Positions 9,001 to 24,000 of a stretch of 32,114 bases of DNA are shown piece by piece (the first letter of the stretch is position 1; every line of letters begins with the position of its first letter). A program made the position numbers. The DNA is from Candidatus Nanohaloarchaea archaeon (lineage in GTDB: Archaea; Nanohalarchaeota; Nanosalinia; Nanosalinales; Nanosalinaceae), in the NCBI GenBank assembly GCA_042217585.1, contig JBDGSJ010000029.1, positions 1 through 32,114 on the forward strand, read 5' to 3'.

Positions 9001-12000
9001 GACCAGGAGGCTGTCCGGCATCCGGTCCTCGATCTCACCTATCGGATCTATACCGAACTTCTGCATCTTTTTCCTGTAGTTCCCGACCTCGACGTCTCCC
9101 CAAGGATCTATCTCTGGCATGTTACCTACACCCTGATTCAGTTAGAACTACTTTAAGGCTTTCCCGGCTCCTGAAACCTGGACAGAAATCTAGAGGAAAC
9201 AGAGCACCGGTTCCCAGATATTCAGGCTTTTGAAAGGATCCAAAAACGTCCACCCTTCGTTGAAACCGCGGAAACCATCTTATCAGCTGTTTAATTATTA
9301 GGGAGAAAATTTTAAATAGCTTAAAGCGGTTCCGGAAGCAGGAAAACAGTCCAGATAACTGAAGCCTCAAGATAATAACTCTGGACGGGCTGGAAGCTTC
9401 AGGAATGCTTTTTCTTCTTTGACATGTAACCCATCCTCTCCTCGTATTCCTCTGTCGACATCAGCACAGGGTAGAAACTTTCCGGAGCCCTGAGTTCCTC
9501 TCCATCCTTCCTGGCGAAGACCTCGCCCTCGGCCACCTCGGCGAAGTTCTCGGCGACGAACTCGTATCCCTCTCCCTCAACCTCGTCATAGACCACGAAA
9601 AGATCGTGTCCTGATTCCTCGACATCTCCCTCTATCAGGTCCTCCGCCGCGAGGAACCTTCTCAGTATCTCGACGGCGTTCTCCTTCGCATCTTCAGAAC
9701 CCTTGAGACCGCATTCGACCGAGATGCCCTGGACGTGATCTATCATCCCTCCGGACTCGTAACTCATGTCGACAACTTTCTCCACTCCTGTCGCCTCCAC
9801 CAGCGGTATGGTCGAATCGTCGTACCGGGTGACTATAGCGAAGGGTTCCGGGTGCGAGAGGGTGGAGTGTAGGTCCAGGACCTTCATGCCCTCTATCTCG
9901 TCCATCATCCTGGCGGCAAGTTCCTGCTCGTGGAAAACACTTTCATCCGTCCCGGGAAAGGCGCGGTTCAGGTCTTCGTCCACGAACCTCTCACCTTTCT
10001 CGAGAGCCTCCTCGTTCGCGATTATGAACTTGACGGGTCCCAGGAACTCCTCGTTCTCCATGACCTCTTCCACGGCGTGCTTGCCGCAGAGCTCGTTCCC
10101 GTGGAGGCACGCAACCACGGCGTGGTCGGGCTCTCCCTCGCCAGCGATTTCTACTTTCACTGTGTTATACTCTTCCTCGGAGTCCTTTAAGGTTTACCGA
10201 GACCGTCAAGATCCATCTGGAGAGCCACCCGCCAGTTCACTGGTTTTCTCCGTGATGTCACCTGACATTATCGCAGAGCCTATCAGACAGGCGTCCGCGC
10301 CCGACCCCATCATCCTCTCGACGTCCTCCCGGGTCTTCAGACCGCTCTCGGCGACCAGTGTCAGGTCCCCGGATGCTTTCGGCGCCAGTCTCTCCACGGT
10401 ACCGAGATCCACTTCAAGCTCTGAGAGGTCCCGGTTGTTGATGCCCAGTACCTCCGCATCGGTCTCCAGGGCTAACTCCAGCTCCTGCTCCGTGTGGACC
10501 TCGACCAGCGGCTGGAAACCCCTGTCCCTGGCCTCGCGGACCATCTCGCCGAGGTCGTCCACGAATCGGGCTATCAGCAAAACCATGTCTGCCTCCACCC
10601 TGTCCAGCTGGGAGGGCTCGAGAATGAAGTCCTTCCTCAGTACGGGGACGTCCACTGCATCCCTGACCCTCCGGAGCAGCCGGGCGGAACCTTTGAAGTG
10701 ATCCGGCTCAGTGAGGACGGAGATGGCGGCGGCCCCTCCCTCCACCATCTTCTCCGCGGCATGTACCAGGTCCTGCTCCTTCTCGTAGTCGGAGGTCGGA
10801 CTTGTCGGCTTGACCTCTGCGATGACAGGGTCCCTGCCGTCCATTCTGGCCTCCTCAAGTGCACCGCTGAGGTCGCGGGGATCGACGGAGACCCTTCCCT
10901 CCGGGGTGGACCGCTGGCGGGCGCTCCGGAGTATCTCCCGCACCCGCGGGTCGACATCGTCCATCAGTCCTCACCTCCCGGTTCTCTGCGGTTCCTGTGC
11001 TCCCGGGCTCTCTCGACGAAGTTCTCTATCATTTCGTGGCCGTGAGAGGTCAGGATGCTCTCCGGGTGGAACTCGACGCCTTCCATCGGTCTCTCGGTGT
11101 GGCGGATACCCATCACAAGTCCGTCCGCCTCCGAGACGACCTCGAACTCCTCAGGCGTCTCCGAGACTATCAGCGAGTGGTACCTTCCGACGGGGAAACC
11201 CTGCGGGAGACCGTCGTATATCTCCTCGCCGTCGTGTTCCAGCGACGAGGTCTTACCGTGGACCGGTTCCGGCGCTCTATCGACCTCTCCGCCGAAAGCC
11301 TCTGCCATCGCCTGGTGTCCGAGGCAGACCCCGAGCATCGGGGTGTCGGAGAACTCCCTGATTATCTCAAGCATGTTGCCGGTGTCGGATTTCTTCGCGG
11401 GATGGCCCGGCCCGGGCGAAAGGACTATCGCGTCCGGATCTATCTCCCGCACCTCCTCCACGGTTACAGTGTTCTTCTCCACGACGAGGTCCTCCTCTTC
11501 CAGGCTGATGTACTCGACGAGGTTCCAGGTGAAGGAGTCGAAGTTGTCGACCATCAGGATCTTCATTCTTCCACCTCCAGCTCTTCAAGGGTGTCCAGAA
11601 GCGCACCCATCTTCTTCTCGGTCTCCTCGAACTCCTTCTCCGGCTCCGAGTCCGCCACTATGCCCCCGCCGGCCTGGACCGTCATCAGTTTCCTGTCCCC
11701 GATATGCCTGAAGCTTGCGGTCCTTATCGTGATCGCGAGGTCGCAGTCGACGAGCTTACCTGACCCTGAACTGCTGGAGTTCCAGGAGTAGTATCCGACG
11801 CCCCCTCCGTAGACACCACGGGGGCTCTGCTCAAGCCGGTCTATTATCTTCATGGCGCGGATCTTGGGAGCCCCGGAGAGAGTGCCCGCGGGGAAGATAG
11901 AACGCGTGGCGTCGAAGGCGTCCTTTCCCTCCCTCAGCTGGCCCGTGACCGTGGACTCCATGTGCTGGACGTGGGAGTACTGGACCACGGACATCAGCTC

Positions 12001-21000: not shown

Positions 21001-24000
21001 CGACTTTTGGAGAAAGCCACGGCGAGGCGATGGGATGTATCGTCAGCGGCTGTCCCGCAGGCCTGGAACTTTCGGAGGAGGACATACAGGAGGAACTCGA
21101 CCGGCGGAAGCCGGGACAGTCCGAGGTCACCACGTCAAGGGATGAGCCCGACGCCGTCAAGATAATGAGCGGACTCCAGGACGGCTATACCACGGGAACC
21201 CCGATAGGGATGATAATCCAGAACAAGGACTCCGACTCCACCAAATACCACCAGCTGATAACCGCTCCAAGGCCGAGCCACGGAGACTTCACGTACAGCT
21301 CCAAGTTCGGCACGAGGAACTGGGGAGGTGGCGGAAGGTCCAGCCAGCGGGAGACCGTCAACTGGGTCGCCGCCGGCGCCATCGCGAAAAAGATACTGAA
21401 CAAGCACGGGATAGAGGTCAAGGCCCACACCAACCAGCTCGACGACATAAAGGCTGGCGAGGTAGACTTCGAGACCATGCGGGAGGATGCCGAGGAGAAC
21501 ATGGTCCGGTGCGCGGACCAGGAAGCTGCCGAGAAGATGGAGGAACGCATCAAGGAGTACAAGGAGGAGGGCGACTCCATCGGCGGAGGGGTTTACTTCG
21601 AGGCCCGCGGCGTACCGAGAGGGCTGGGCGCTCCCCGGTTCGACGGCGTCCCCGCCAGACTGGGAAAAGCACTGATGGCGGTCCCCGCGGTCAACTCATT
21701 CGAGTTCGGTCTCGGGAAGGAAGTCAGGACCACCAACGGACACTCCAGGAACGATCCATGGGAGTTCGACGAGAACAGCGATCCGAAACCGGCAGAGAAC
21801 GACCACGGAGGCCTCCAGGGAGGCATCACCACCGGAGAACCCATCTACGGAGAGGTCAGCGTCCACGCACCGACATCGATAACCAAGGACCAGAAGACCG
21901 TGGACTGGGAGACCGGAGAGGAGAAAGAGATACAGGTCACCGGAAGACACGACCCCTCCCTACCGCCGCGGCACGTCCCGATCATCGAGGCGGTCCTCAG
22001 GCTGACGCTTCTCGACTTCATGCTTCTCTCAGGCAGGATAAACCCGGACAGGCTGGACGACCAGCCCGGCGAGTACGACACCGACTACCACCCCTCCGAG
22101 CCGTGAGCAAGCATGAAGGGAAAAGCCAGCGCACCCGGAGCACTTACCGTCATCAACGCCATATCAACTCTGAAGGGCTCCGCGTTCGCGATAGACCTCA
22201 GGACCACTGCAGAGGTCGAACTCGACCCCGGAAGGGATGAAGTCAGGGGCGAGATAGAGGGGAAGCCGGATGAGGACACCGAGATGATAGAGAGATGCGT
22301 CGAACTGGTCCTGGACCGTTTCGACGTGGACGCAGGTGGAGAAGTCAGGACCTCGGGCGAGATACCGATGGCGAGCGGCCTGAAATCCAGTAGCGCCGCC
22401 GCGAACGCCGCGGTCCTCGCCACACTGGAGGCTATAGATGAGGAGATGGACCGCAGGGAGGCGACCCTGATAGGAGTGCAGGCATCCAGGGACGCCGGCG
22501 TAACCGTGACAGGGGCGCTGGACGACGCCTCCTCCTCGATGCTCGGCGGCGTGGTCGTCACCGACAACTCGGAGGACGAGGTCCTCCACCACGAGGAGTT
22601 CGAGAGGTACTGCGCGGTCTACATACCGGACGAATCAGTCAGGAGCGTGGACACCGACGTGGACCGGTCGAAGACCATCTCCCCGGTAATAGAGGAGGTC
22701 TTCGAGATCGCGATGGACGGAAGGTACGCCCGGGCGATGACCATCAACGGACTGGCCTACTGCGCAGCACTGGATTTCGACACCGGTCCGGTCATCGAGG
22801 CCCTGGAACACTGCGAGGGGGCAAGCCTGAGCGGGACCGGTCCCTCGTACGGCGCGATAGGTACCGAGGAAGAAGTTGAGAGTGTCCTCGACGAATGGGA
22901 GGACCTACCCGGTGAGACGATGAAACTTAGGACCGACAACACCGGAGGAAGGAAGGAGTGAAGACCTTCGGACTGATCGGATACCCCGTCGAGCACTCGC
23001 TCTCCCCCGAGATGCAGGAGACAGGGCTGGAGGAGCTCGGGATAAACGGACGGTACTGCCTCTACCCTGTCGAGGACGGGGACGTGGAGCAGGCGCTGAA
23101 GGGAGCCTTCGCCCTTGGCATAGACGGCCTGAACGTCACGATACCACACAAGCAGGCGGTCGCCGAGTCAGAGATGGTTGAGACCTCCGAACTTGCGGAG
23201 AGGATAGGAGCCGTGAACACAGTGGAATTCACGGATAACGGTATCAGGGGATACAACACCGATGCCCGCGGCGCGAGAAGGGCCCTGGAGAGACACGAAG
23301 TCGATATAGAGGGCTCGGAGGCCGTCGTGGTCGGGGCGGGAGGTGCCTCGCGCGCCATCTCCTTCATGCTGGCTGACAGCGGGGCGGAAGTATCGATCGC
23401 GAACAGGACCTATGGGAAGGCCGAGGAACTCGCGGAAAACGTCTCCAGGATGGGAGACGCGTCAGGACACCCTCTCGAAGATCTCGAGGAGCTCGTGGGA
23501 AAGGCCGACATCCTGGTGAACGCGACAAGCGTCGGGATGGAGGAGGACAGGTCAGTGGTCCCCGCGGAGCACCTCCACTCTGACCTCACGGTCCTCGACG
23601 CGGTCTACAGACCTCTCGAAACGAAACTGCTGCGTGACGCAGAGAGGAAGGGAGCGAAGACCGTCGACGGCGCATGGATGCTGCTTTACCAGGGAACGGA
23701 AGCTTTCGAGATATGGACCGGGAGGGAGGCGCCGGTCGACGCGATGAACCAGGCCCTGAGGGACGAACTCGAGTAACTCAGGAGTACTTCCGCAGTGCTT
23801 CGACCGCCGCGAGGTCCTCGCCGCTCATGAACCTGACGAAGGCTCCTCCCGCGATGGAGACGTGGCTGAAGTCCTCCAGCTCGTAGCCGTACCTCTGGAC
23901 CAGCGAGGAGGTGTGTCCCCCGCCGAGGACCGCGTAAGAGTCGGACTCCGCGATCGCCGAGACCACGGCACGGGTCCCGTCCTCATGGCCCTCGTCGAAG

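Follow-up and report, generated by a model that had tools for sequence, protein, structure and literature searches.

The locus described here raises the question of how a nanohaloarchaeon can carry a complete set of tryptophan genes together with only the last four genes of the shikimate pathway, and whether such a truncated pathway is in use. The window is the entire contig C22 (32,114 nucleotides) of the genome G000, whose 0.98-Mb assembly consists of 38 contigs and is 89.68% complete; the tetranucleotide composition of C22 falls within the range spanned by the 87 remaining ten-kb chunks. The answer suggested by the sequence, to which we give about even confidence, is that the locus may be a working pathway under regulation, drawing on an intermediate from the host.

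Tryptophan and shikimate genes of the contig

Pfam and NCBIfam profile searches confirm the gene content that the initial annotation gave for this stretch:

10206..10964, minus strand: trpC, indole-3-glycerol-phosphate synthase (PF00218, E 5e-67; NF041303, haloarchaeal TrpC, 362.8 bits, cut-off 380)
10964..11566, minus strand: trpG, anthranilate synthase component II (PF00117; NF041322, 248.7 bits)
11563..13125, minus strand: trpE, anthranilate synthase component I (TIGR01820, 523.8 bits, cut-off 512)
13122..13748, minus strand: trpF, phosphoribosylanthranilate isomerase (PF00697, profile positions 1-192 of 193)
13745..14746, minus strand: trpD, anthranilate phosphoribosyltransferase (TIGR01245, 412.5 bits, cut-off 199)
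14743..15375, minus strand: purine-type phosphoribosyltransferase, HPT/APT-like (NF002635, 138.7 bits, and NF040646, 134.2 bits, both below cut-off)
15320..16105, minus strand: trpA, tryptophan synthase alpha (TIGR00262, 239.3 bits, cut-off 102)
16074..17237, minus strand: trpB, tryptophan synthase beta (TIGR00263, 573 bits, cut-off 392)
19531..19632, plus strand: aroA upstream region (TATA-like ATTTAAG ending 24 nt before the ATG)
19633..20907, plus strand: aroA, EPSP synthase (TIGR01356, 428.3 bits, cut-off 287)
20964..22106, plus strand: aroC, chorismate synthase (NF003793, 419.4 bits, cut-off 321)
22113..22961, plus strand: aroK, archaeal GHMP-type shikimate kinase (TIGR01920, 283.8 bits, cut-off 127)
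22958..23776, plus strand: aroE, shikimate dehydrogenase (NF001319, 277.4 bits, cut-off 252)

All seven trp genes and aroA, aroC, aroK and aroE are intact, with end-to-end profile matches, and none of these 11 pathway genes shows a frameshift, stop or truncation in the Pfam and NCBIfam comparisons. Seven of them exceed NCBIfam equivalog cut-offs, among them trpE, trpD, trpA and trpB together with part of the aroA, aroC, aroK and aroE set, and the operon-type gene overlaps are kept. The purine-type phosphoribosyltransferase within the trp string is probably not a tryptophan enzyme.

Two blocks in a conserved backbone

The genes flanking the pathway belong to a backbone with the order endA-rhomboid-glyS-pgk / trpS-spoIIM-pheS-pheT, whose synteny with ten relatives bears out the earlier assignment of the contig to the nanohaloarchaeon:

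8020..9120, minus strand: trpS, tryptophan--tRNA ligase, syntenic in the ten relatives (NF008926, 375.8 bits, cut-off 320)
9399..10160, minus strand: AstE/aspartoacylase-like backbone gene (PF24827), 45 nt from the end of the trp block
23778..24953, minus strand: pgk, backbone gene (PF00162), 1 nt from the end of the aro block
25919..27646, plus strand: glyS, glycine--tRNA ligase (TIGR00389, 648 bits)

Orthologues of the AstE-like gene adjoin pgk or trpS in five of the eight relatives fetched, and pgk itself is present in 43 of 49 family genomes. The pathway genes are inserted between pgk and trpS, and eight other genomes have the same backbone without them. Rather than the single 13.6-kb island first proposed, the stretch forms a mosaic with at least two blocks, one on each side of the backbone spacer 17238-17703. 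Two runs that may be the source of this very DNA have Logan contigs that span the junction trpB-FGGY-orf216-aroA-aroC unbroken and at even depth (4418 bases with 2 mismatches and 4424 bases with 3). One contig of run X1 (depth 5.6) appears to link 17669 to 23797, omitting FGGY through aroE; this is a hint that a variant lacking the aro block co-occurs, and it counts against a pathway in use.

Also counting against it, the backbone tree does not place G000 beside genus g15, in which the blocks are patchy (present in G047 and G048, absent from G046 and G049); given both observations, transfer between nanohaloarchaea and stepwise assembly are possible. In the same direction, the trp parts are not orthologous throughout, TrpE and TrpG of G048 being 49.5% and 46% identical to the G000 copies, which share 60% and 70% identity with Halorutilales. 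TrpA of G000 is 62.5% identical to that of G047, and AroC 93% identical over 323 aa.

Absence of the entry enzymes and the state of relatives

The lack of entry enzymes reported earlier is upheld, neither dehydroquinate synthase nor dehydroquinase being found, in either of their types, in the G000 assembly: searching all of it in six frames at E<=1 gave no match to PF01959, PF01487, PF01761 or PF01220, nor to the ADH synthase family (PF01791, DeoC), which had been left unsearched. AroA', AroB' and AroD of G047 and G048, used as tblastn queries against all 38 contigs, gave noise only. Prephenate dehydratase (PDT) and PDH were likewise not found in G000.

A pathway starting at dehydroshikimate had been taken as the design of the island, a view at odds with G047 and G048. 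Both carry aroA' (DeoC, 261/262 aa), aroB' (DHQS II, 363 aa) and aroD (type I, 222/223 aa), in that order and directly upstream of aroA-aroC-aroK-aroE, adjoining pgk as in G000. Since the entry genes occupy the same site in these relatives, the truncation in G000 is most simply, and probably, a secondary loss. The aroA upstream region of G000 is not homologous to the junction between aroD and aroA in G047 and G048, and it shows no detectable trace of aroA', aroB' or aroD, so that we infer loss, as opposed to genes never gained, from the relatives only.

The earlier phylum-wide family counts agree with our recount, in which chorismate synthase is found in 4 of 70 phylum genomes, G000 included, and DHQS II in two. 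Within family f1, trpD occurs in G000 and in none of the 49 others. The trp genes of G047 are limited to trpA, trpB and a trpC fragment of 134 aa, and those of G048 to the trpE/trpG pair; G061 has just an aroC fragment of 154 aa. Pathway tails that lack a source are frequent in the family, chorismate mutase being present in 35 and prephenate dehydratase in 34 of the 49 other genomes, as against chorismate synthase in three.

Haloarchaeal affinity of the genes

The claim that these genes are host-derived stands as regards their haloarchaeal affinity; the nearest lineage is Halorutilales, which is not necessarily the host. In the AroA tree the three nanohaloarchaea form one clade (SH-aLRT 94), sister to Halorutilales (99), and AroB' of G047 is likewise most similar to Halorutilales (65%, against 62 (partial), 56, 54 and 49%), so that the early and late genes share the same affinity. 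Halorutilales archaeon Cl-col2-1 has the trpD-trpF-trpE-trpG order of G000, with identities of 65, 48, 60 and 70%. In Haloferax volcanii the trp genes form the clusters trpCBA and trpDFEG, whereas G000 joins trpB-trpA, the phosphoribosyltransferase, trpDFEG and trpC into one eight-gene string behind a nanohaloarchaeal leader.

The archaeal shikimate pathway with the ADH entry AroA'/AroB' is known from Methanocaldococcus jannaschii (MJ0400/MJ1249) and Halobacterium. G047 and G048 carry this pathway in full (DeoC aroA', DHQS-II aroB', type I aroD, aroA, aroC, GHMP aroK and aroE), while G000 has its last four genes without the three entry genes. The seven genes form one operon in nanohaloarchaea; the Halorutilales genome has a lone aroA, and in Halorutilus salinus aroA'-aroB'-aroD is a separate cluster.

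A cognate-codon leader upstream of trpB

The spacer upstream of trpB contains three copies of a motif of the form GGTGGAYGTTTT+NNN, which generally lies inside short ORFs (M..KGGRF-X). The copies on the contig are the following:

9222..9278, minus strand: Trp-codon leader mini-ORF MVSAVSTKGGRFWILSKA, 134 nt upstream of trpS (motif 9243-9254, TGG 9240-9242)
17289..17372, minus strand: Trp-codon leader 3, mini-ORF MKSSGFAYAAEDRKGGRFWSSSTGTVL, motif start 93 nt before the trpB ATG
17584..17598, minus strand: Trp-codon motif copy 2, GGTGGACGTTTT+TGG, no in-frame ATG nearby
17618..17668, minus strand: Trp-codon leader 1, mini-ORF MAQKGGRFWTRELSSL
25814..25867, plus strand: Gly-codon leader mini-ORF MTTKGGCFGSAARQDSE, motif start 93 nt upstream of glyS

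The layout is the same before trpB (93 nt), glyS (93 nt) and trpS (134 nt). Leader 1 is near-identical over its first 27 nt to the first copy that G046, G049, G052 and G058 carry in the pgk-trpS spacer; leader 3 has a TATA-like box about 37 nt upstream of its ATG, and an SD-like GGAGGTG precedes trpB. Across the family, NNN is the cognate codon of the downstream aminoacyl-tRNA synthetase gene in 42 of 42 cases checked (5/5 in G000, 26/26 and 11/11 in relatives), and in two further cases TTC precedes pheS (G032, G033). From this family-wide rule and the three Trp-codon copies before trpB, the trp operon appears to be connected to a leader specific for tryptophan.

Bacterial leader-peptide attenuators (trpL, pheL/pheM, thrL, hisL) likewise place a short ORF with cognate codons upstream of amino-acid or synthetase genes. 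The present element differs in its single cognate codon, whose place behind an invariant stretch common to eight amino-acid specificities is fixed, in showing no conserved terminator or antiterminator (tyrS and serS leaders), and in belonging to an archaeon. The bacterial T-box riboswitch (RF00230) also serves many synthetase genes with one leader family and a single specifier codon each. Unlike the T-box, the nanohaloarchaeal element covers some 20 nt instead of some 200, has its codon in frame in a short ORF, and shows no Rfam match or conserved stem.

As regards regulation, the motif might instead be read as RNA or DNA, by tRNA in a T-box-like manner or by a protein, with no translating ribosome. 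Its GGT GGA stretch lacks any synonymous variation, the change seen most often is C to T (Arg to Cys), 14 of 66 copies have no in-frame ATG, and its GGGUGGA part may resemble the bacterial T-box sequence. This is nevertheless doubtful, as 52 of the 66 copies have an in-frame ATG no more than 12 codons away with no stop in between (one and two in the other frames), the mini-ORFs measure 11-25 codons (one 42), and the Lys (AAA/AAG) and Arg (CGT/CGC) codons vary synonymously. For the tyrS and serS leaders, RNAalifold returned neither a conserved structure nor a single compensatory pair, and an Rfam search of the whole contig gave no match.

A working pathway or a relic

The two unassigned genes between trpB and aroA had been proposed as a new entry into the pathway:

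17704..18852, minus strand: FGGY-like ORF of 382 aa, internally deleted (PF00370, E 2e-10; FGGY_C only E 4e-4)
18880..19530, minus strand: orf216, acidic orphan ORF, no Pfam or NCBIfam family

On the strand opposite orf216, the ORF 18901-19545 was set aside as a basic shadow ORF. The two genes stand where relatives have aroA', aroB' and aroD, and known entry enzymes were not found in the assembly, yet a novel route to dehydroshikimate through them, or through other unrecognised enzymes, is highly improbable. In G047 an FGGY gene (444 aa, 35% identical) occurs alongside the canonical entry genes; from the G000 copy some 60 residues of the C-terminal domain are missing, spanning the conserved PFLDGER..GL..ARS..EA region; orf216 matches only its own record among 5.8 billion clusters, with no confident fold (pLDDT 33); and both lie on the strand opposite aroA. 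Somewhat better, though still unlikely, is a complete pathway whose entry genes sit in the unassembled tenth of the genome, a view helped by the 38-contig assembly and by the likewise missing prephenate dehydratase. It would require relocation elsewhere, for both relatives hold all three genes directly upstream of aroA, and the corresponding G000 site is gap-free and spanned by contigs of two runs.

The main rival is decay, a tentative alternative in which the entry genes were recently deleted and the other 11 genes form no working pathway, awaiting loss as in most relatives. Trp/aro erosion that differs between genomes (G047, G048 and G061 remnants), the eight empty backbone sites, the deleted FGGY gene, the possible X1 variant and a small, non-significant excess of unique changes in AroE (25 vs 16, p 0.2) speak for it. 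Against it stand the 11 undamaged genes, the retained overlaps, the intact leader before trpB with its TATA-like box and SD-like sequence, and the rates: AroA, AroC and AroK of G000 have 43 vs 45, 4 vs 5 and 22 vs 29 unique changes relative to full-pathway orthologues, and none of the four Aro proteins is accelerated, although equal rates could simply mean that the deletion is recent. Against a host-fed pathway, in turn, neither a transporter nor any other route was found by which dehydroshikimate or shikimate could enter, and a host able to give dehydroshikimate could presumably also give tryptophan.

In the preferred reading of a regulated, host-fed pathway, the conserved pgk-trpS region would have acquired two blocks of haloarchaeal-type genes, the complete operon trpB-trpA-(phosphoribosyltransferase)-trpD-trpF-trpE-trpG-trpC on the trpS side and aroA-aroC-aroK-aroE on the pgk side, and the lineage would later have lost ADH synthase, dehydroquinate synthase II and dehydroquinase. 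The remaining enzymes would convert 3-dehydroshikimate or shikimate, supplied by the haloarchaeal host, into chorismate and then tryptophan. Transcription of the trp operon would start in the conserved spacer, and because this carries Trp-codon leaders of the family-wide synthetase type, expression is probably tied to the supply of charged tRNA-Trp. The cultivated nanohaloarchaeon Ca. Nanohalovita haloferacivicina BNXNv is reported to have an aromatic amino-acid operon (chorismate mutase, PheA, TyrA, AspB) that is likewise a pathway tail from an intermediate the cell cannot make (PMC10266531). That tail leads from chorismate to phenylalanine and tyrosine, while the one in G000 would begin four steps earlier and lead to tryptophan.

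Gene Content and Placement of the Locus

The window takes up all of contig C22. Scans with the Pfam and NCBIfam profiles uphold the gene list of the initial annotation, all pathway genes being of full length. The locus contains the following features:

9222-9278 (-), 17289-17668 (-) and 25814-25867 (+): leader copies (GGTGGAYGTTTT plus one codon)
10206-17237 (-): trpC, trpG, trpE, trpF, trpD, a purine-type phosphoribosyltransferase gene, trpA and trpB
17704-18852 (-): FGGY-like ORF (382 aa), upstream of trpB
18880-19530 (-): acidic 216-aa ORF (orf216), upstream of trpB
19633-23776 (+): aroA, aroC, archaeal GHMP-type aroK and aroE

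Each pathway gene covers its profile from end to end. TrpE, TrpD, TrpA, TrpB, AroA, AroC, AroK and AroE exceed the NCBIfam equivalog cut-offs; TrpC, TrpG and TrpF remain under the strict cut-offs, yet cover their Pfam profiles end to end. Judged by these profiles, the set leading from chorismate to tryptophan (TrpE, G, D, F, C, A and B) is complete, with seven of seven members at full length. Of the 70 genomes in the phylum set, only the one under study (G000) has the whole tryptophan branch. A TATA-like ATTTAAG upstream of aroA ends 24 nt before its ATG. The plus-strand ORF facing orf216 is a basic shadow frame, and no tRNA genes were found in the window.

The contig belongs to the nanohaloarchaeon and is correctly joined. 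By tetranucleotide distance, the three 10-kb chunks of the contig rank at percentiles 20, 76 and 86 of the other 87 chunks, and the flanking order endA, rhomboid, glyS, pgk / trpS, spoIIM, pheS, pheT is common to ten other genomes of the family (f1). Moreover, Logan contigs of two sequencing runs span positions 16971-21388 and 16962-21385 with 2 and 3 mismatches, at an even depth of about 10 and 17-20 over the whole stretch; these two runs may be the source data of the assembly. Runs X3 and X4 contain only short or diverged pieces of the stretch and give no hint of habitat. One contig of run X1 (depth 5.6) appears to join position 17669 to 23797 with 40 other letters between, and would correspond to a putative variant or relative in which the trp side lies beside pgk, without the FGGY-like gene, orf216 and aroA-aroE.

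Between pheS and spoIIM (3170-7215) lie genes for a Roadblock/LC7 protein, a small GTPase and three KaiC-like ATPases, and the same set is found beyond spoIIM in a relative, G039. At 27811-29480 (-) two adjacent ORFs each match part of the FIST domain, the first FIST N and C and the second FIST N, and may represent one gene that has been split or frameshifted; the rhomboid/AN1 zinc-finger gene on the other strand is overlapped by the second ORF. The pgk match of each of three relatives (G050, G053 and G066; loci L129, L137 and L146) contains one in-frame TAG.

A Cognate-Codon Leader Upstream of Synthetase and Tryptophan Genes

The 466-nt spacer between the FGGY-like ORF and trpB carries three copies of GGTGGACGTTTT followed by TGG, and a fourth copy stands 134 nt upstream of trpS. 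Copies occur elsewhere in the assembly (C1:183, C5:10140, C19:40634) and at loci L177-L226. The three bases that follow the motif vary from place to place, and they always encode the amino acid handled by the synthetase whose gene begins 71-181 nt further on. Thus, G000 has ACC before thrS, with GTA preceding valS, TCT serS, GGA glyS and TGG trpS. A pattern search detected the motif in 45 of the 50 genomes of family f1, far above the reversed control (9 versus 0 in G000). Outside f1, it is not enriched in family f4 (3 versus 9 in the control) or in 41 Halobacteria (12 versus 11), and it is weakly so in family f5 (5 versus 1).

The match between codon and gene holds in every case checked. The pattern search returned 29 loci outside G000, of which 26 have the copy ahead of a synthetase gene, with the codon correct in all 26 (Ser 7, Gly 8, Tyr 6, Thr 3, Val 2); 20 further regions gave 11 such copies with 11 agreements, adding Cys twice. 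Altogether, the codon corresponds to the downstream synthetase in 42 of 42 cases checked, plus two pheS cases (TTC in G032 and G033), and it switches synonymously inside one type (TCC/TCT, ACC/ACA, TAC/TAT). Since orthologous leaders are not independent, the fair count is that of eight specificities, for which the chance of complete agreement is of the order of 1e-11.

Several copies precede genes other than synthetases. They are found before the trp operon in G000, before trpE-trpG-trpS in G048 and before a string ending in trpB-trpA-trpS in G047, as well as before several ORFs without a family. Trp-codon copies also stand before a GNAT-like ORF and an M20 peptidase gene, ahead of trpS, in G052, and before a class-II aminotransferase gene in G065. 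On contig C8 of G000 (positions 1964 and 2265; locus L172), an operon consisting of a 358-aa ORF, a GNAT gene and a gene for an enolase-superfamily (MR_MLE) protein follows two Trp-codon copies; these ORFs have no homologues in the spacers of the relatives. It is possible that the genes behind the Trp-codon copies on C8 and in G052 and G065 serve tryptophan salvage. Val-codon copies lie before 152-168-aa ORFs without a family at G000:C19:46672 (-), L222 (G039) and L207 (G052). Two AAA copies, before endonuclease V and a glycosyltransferase gene, are doubtful and were regarded as chance or unexplained, and weaker variants (GGTGGACGCGTTC) retrieved by nhmmer were left out as leaders, as they mostly fall at GTG starts of ordinary ORFs (MDAF..).

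Read in the frame GGT GGA YGT TTT NNN, 52 of 66 distinct copies have an upstream ATG within 12 codons and no intervening stop; when the other two frames are put to the same test, 1 and 2 of 66 do. The resulting ORFs measure 11-25 codons, with one of 42, and their commonest form is ATG AAR GGT GGA YGT TTT NNN, encoding MKGG(R/C)F-X. As expected of leader-peptide sensing of charged tRNA, the downstream gene is preceded in these copies by a short ORF that can be translated and that carries the codon of its amino acid. A TATA-like box is located about 30 nt before the leader ATG, and a second conserved box (YCAAAACCTTCTAG) and an SD-like GGTG precede the downstream gene. The synonymous positions of GGT GGA are invariant across copies, and a constraint acting on the leader nucleotides as such is therefore likely.

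Neither the six tyrS leaders nor the eight serS leaders analysed with RNAalifold gave a conserved structure, the Rfam gathering scan of the window returned no match, to the T-box (RF00230) or otherwise, and no comparable element was found in Rfam 15. In glyS leaders, inspection by eye, uncounted, revealed hairpins with differing stems after the Gly codon. On the reading proposed here, the f1 leader would share the single specifier codon with the T-box and the translated leader with bacterial attenuators. We read it as a translated sensor of the charged tRNA for X, in which the step from ribosome pausing to gene expression is putative. The sensor would be a near-leaderless mini-ORF, M(x)0-13-K-G-G-R/C-F-X, whose X is the codon for the amino acid served downstream, and it would act before at least eight synthetase genes (Ser, Gly, Tyr, Thr, Val, Cys, Trp and Phe) as well as ahead of amino-acid supply genes. 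In G000 it would drive the acquired tryptophan operon, whose precursor would be a shikimate-pathway intermediate of the host. Full-text literature searches yielded, in their result listings, no description of such a leader system.

Absence of the Entry Steps of the Shikimate Pathway

The whole assembly (0.98 Mb, 38 contigs, 89.68% complete) was searched in six frames for the entry families at E<=1. No match was obtained to dehydroquinate synthase (DHQ synthase PF01761, DHQS II PF01959) or to dehydroquinase (type I PF01487, type II PF01220), so that the reported absence of both enzymes in their known types holds for an assembly of this completeness. The same applies to ADH synthase, which the initial annotation had named as unsearched: the DeoC aldolase family (PF01791) has no match in the assembly at E<=1, DAHP synthase (PF00793/PF01474) lying outside this search. 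All five families were detected in control genomes of the same searches. Likewise, when AroA', AroB' and AroD of G047 and G048, the nearest proteins available, were used as tblastn queries, nothing was returned from the assembly at default statistics. When the composition correction was switched off, many matches of 20-28% identity appeared on other contigs, with E down to 3e-7; they were treated as noise of acidic composition, because they are lost under default statistics. No remnants of aroA', aroB' or aroD were found within 17238-19632 or just upstream of aroA.

Downstream of chorismate, G000 retains a stand-alone chorismate mutase (C6:13345-13578, adjoining ftsY) as the only member of the mutase/dehydratase pair; neither prephenate dehydratase nor prephenate dehydrogenase was found in the assembly. 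Pathway tails are frequent in f1: among its 49 other genomes, chorismate mutase is present in 35 and prephenate dehydratase in 34, usually adjacent, and despite this wide distribution only 3 of the 49 have chorismate synthase.

It had been proposed that the two unassigned genes between the blocks provide a new entry into the pathway. Neither the FGGY-like gene nor orf216 supports this reading. The FGGY-like protein falls into a small lineage in which four close relatives are 47-100% identical to the copy of G047; there, the gene is flanked by a trpC fragment and by trpB, and the canonical entry is present in the same genome. In G000, moreover, a gap of about 60 residues relative to six homologues takes out the conserved PFLDGER..GL..ARS..EA of the C-terminal domain, whose Pfam match (FGGY_C, E 4e-4) is under the gathering score. 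For its part, orf216 is an orphan, without a Pfam or NCBIfam family and with its own record as the sole return of the homologue search; its structure models are poor (atlas pLDDT 0.33 with weak structure rows only; AlphaFold2 pLDDT 33.4). In G047, an inositol-monophosphatase-family gene (L008:13220-14113, -) and the full-length FGGY kinase gene (L008:11500-12834, -) lie between the Trp-codon leaders and trpB; that they make 6-deoxy-5-ketofructose phosphate for ADH synthase is only a guess.

Relatives and History of the Site

Chorismate synthase occurs in 4 of the 70 genomes of the phylum set (G000, G047, G048 and, as a 154-aa fragment, G061), and DHQS II in two, G047 and G048. The neighbourhood of these two equals that of G000, with three additional genes directly upstream of aroA in the same direction: a DeoC-family aldolase (261/262 aa), DHQS II (363 aa) and a type I dehydroquinase (222/223 aa). 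Both relatives thus possess the full seven-gene archaeal shikimate operon, its end beside pgk. The same place in G000 holds the FGGY-like gene and orf216 on the opposite strand, and no similarity between G000 and G047/G048 exists upstream of the aroA ATG. The trp genes are patchier than the aro genes: G047 carries trpA, trpB, a 134-aa trpC fragment and a full-length 444-aa FGGY gene, G048 only the trpE/trpG pair, and trpD is absent from all 49 other genomes of f1. A start at dehydroshikimate, as first proposed, describes the pathway as assembled, and the comparison recasts it as what is probably a trimmed version of the full pathway kept in G047 and G048.

In eight further genomes (G046 and G049, which share their genus with G047 and G048, and G052, G039, G032, G033, G050 and G058), pgk and trpS are 0.9-5 kb apart, separated only by an AstE-like gene and one or two others, and no trp or aro genes or relics were found in this gap; the genes are thus absent at 8 of the 11 backbone sites examined. 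The pgk-trpS spacer of the relatives bears the leader motif, usually in two copies 270-330 nt apart. In G000 the trp genes follow the motif copies and occupy the side of trpS, and the aro genes occupy that of pgk. Because the motif of the spacer also marks the pgk-trpS spacer of the relatives, what had been described as a single island corresponds to two insertions flanking an old backbone element.

A tree of eight backbone proteins (3081 columns) does not place G000 as sister to the genus of G047 and G048, and it groups G047 with G049 (97/98) though G047 has trp/aro genes and G049 lacks them. Accordingly, the genes are either ancient, with repeated losses, or were passed from one nanohaloarchaeon to another by way of the conserved flanks. 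Between G000 and G047/G048, AroA shares 65-67% identity, and pgk likewise 65-66%. AroC (20964-22106) reaches 93% identity over 323 aa with its G047 counterpart (L008:19031-19999), whereas neighbouring genes and backbone proteins are 58-80% identical, which points to either a very strong constraint or a recent exchange of aroC alone.

Origin of the Acquired Genes

The haloarchaeal affinity claimed for the locus is corroborated by a tree of AroA and by the identities of TrpD and AroB'. AroA is the only gene with a tree; TrpD, TrpE, TrpF, TrpG and AroB' were judged by identity alone. A single AroA query retrieved 16 loci, mostly bacterial, and an alignment query was used instead; two AroB' sequences retrieved 6 loci, hence no AroB' tree was built. 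In the AroA tree (80 rows, quick LG+G4 search, eleven rows deviant in composition, including one nanohaloarchaeon), the three nanohaloarchaeal proteins group in one clade (SH-aLRT 94), with the Halorutilales archaeon Cl-col2-1 as its sister (99). Together they are sister to 38 rows, 35 of them Halobacteriales (96), and the Methanosarcinales and others fall outside this haloarchaeal and nanohaloarchaeal group. TrpD of G000 shares 65% identity with Halorutilales (Haloferax 61, Halanaeroarchaeum 60, Halobacterium 56, Methanosarcina 50), and AroB' of G047 also 65% (Haloferax 62, partial; Halanaeroarchaeum 56; Halobacterium 54; Methanosarcina 49).

The Halorutilales genome has trpD-trpF-trpE-trpG in the order of G000. 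Halorutilus salinus keeps aroA'-aroB'-aroD together with aroA separate, and for this reason the seven-gene operon is no copy of a known haloarchaeal arrangement. TrpE and TrpG of G000 are closer to the Halorutilales proteins than to those of G048, so that the trp parts come from more than one source. The published description of H. salinus reports 59.8 mol% G+C and a RuBisCO resembling nanohaloarchaeal sequences (PMC10134839). The trp and aro blocks of G000 have a G+C of 0.61-0.63, and the contigs of its assembly 0.52 to 0.62.

A Proposed Working Pathway Fed by the Host

Decay in progress of the remaining trp and aro genes is the serious alternative to a working pathway. Among the sequencing runs that contain the stretch, none is on record as RNA. 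A relative-rate check, in which the residues unique to G000 and to a relative were counted against an outgroup, gave 43 versus 45 (G047) and 45 versus 49 (G048) for AroA, 4 versus 5 for AroC, 22 versus 29 for AroK and 25 versus 16 for AroE (p 0.21), that is, no acceleration of the four aro proteins of G000. Both the intact Trp-codon leader and the normal evolutionary rates of the four aro genes speak for a trp/aro route that would be working, regulated and fed by a host intermediate. Of the earlier interpretation, the haloarchaeal-type genes and the start at dehydroshikimate are retained; the trimming of a full pathway is new, and the two unassigned genes drop out as a substitute for its entry.

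Nanohaloarchaeota are thought to obtain all amino acids from their hosts. Our full-text searches on nanohaloarchaeal shikimate, tryptophan and chorismate genes found nothing on the G000 locus. A comparable pathway-tail operon is noted for a cultivated nanohaloarchaeon (PMC10266531), and another source describes a nanohaloarchaeon that appears to enter the host cell (PMC11291902). Such an entry would open cytoplasmic intermediates to the symbiont, which is context and not evidence for G000.

Taken together, it is quite possible, though we would stop short of calling it probable, that family f1 possesses an undescribed archaeal system sensing single amino acids, which in G000 would drive an acquired trp operon supplied with a host-derived precursor from the shikimate pathway. 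If true, Archaea would have their first cognate-codon leader regulon and, if charged tRNA is what it senses, a counterpart of bacterial attenuators and T-boxes. The leader would also be a simple means to predict the amino acid served by an unknown downstream gene; candidates are the genes for GNAT, M20 peptidase and aminotransferase that follow Trp-codon copies. Set against its relatives, G000 shows how acquired pathways lose their front part, the remaining tails being able to run only on host intermediates. The genome names a testable metabolite hand-over from host to symbiont, that of dehydroshikimate or shikimate.
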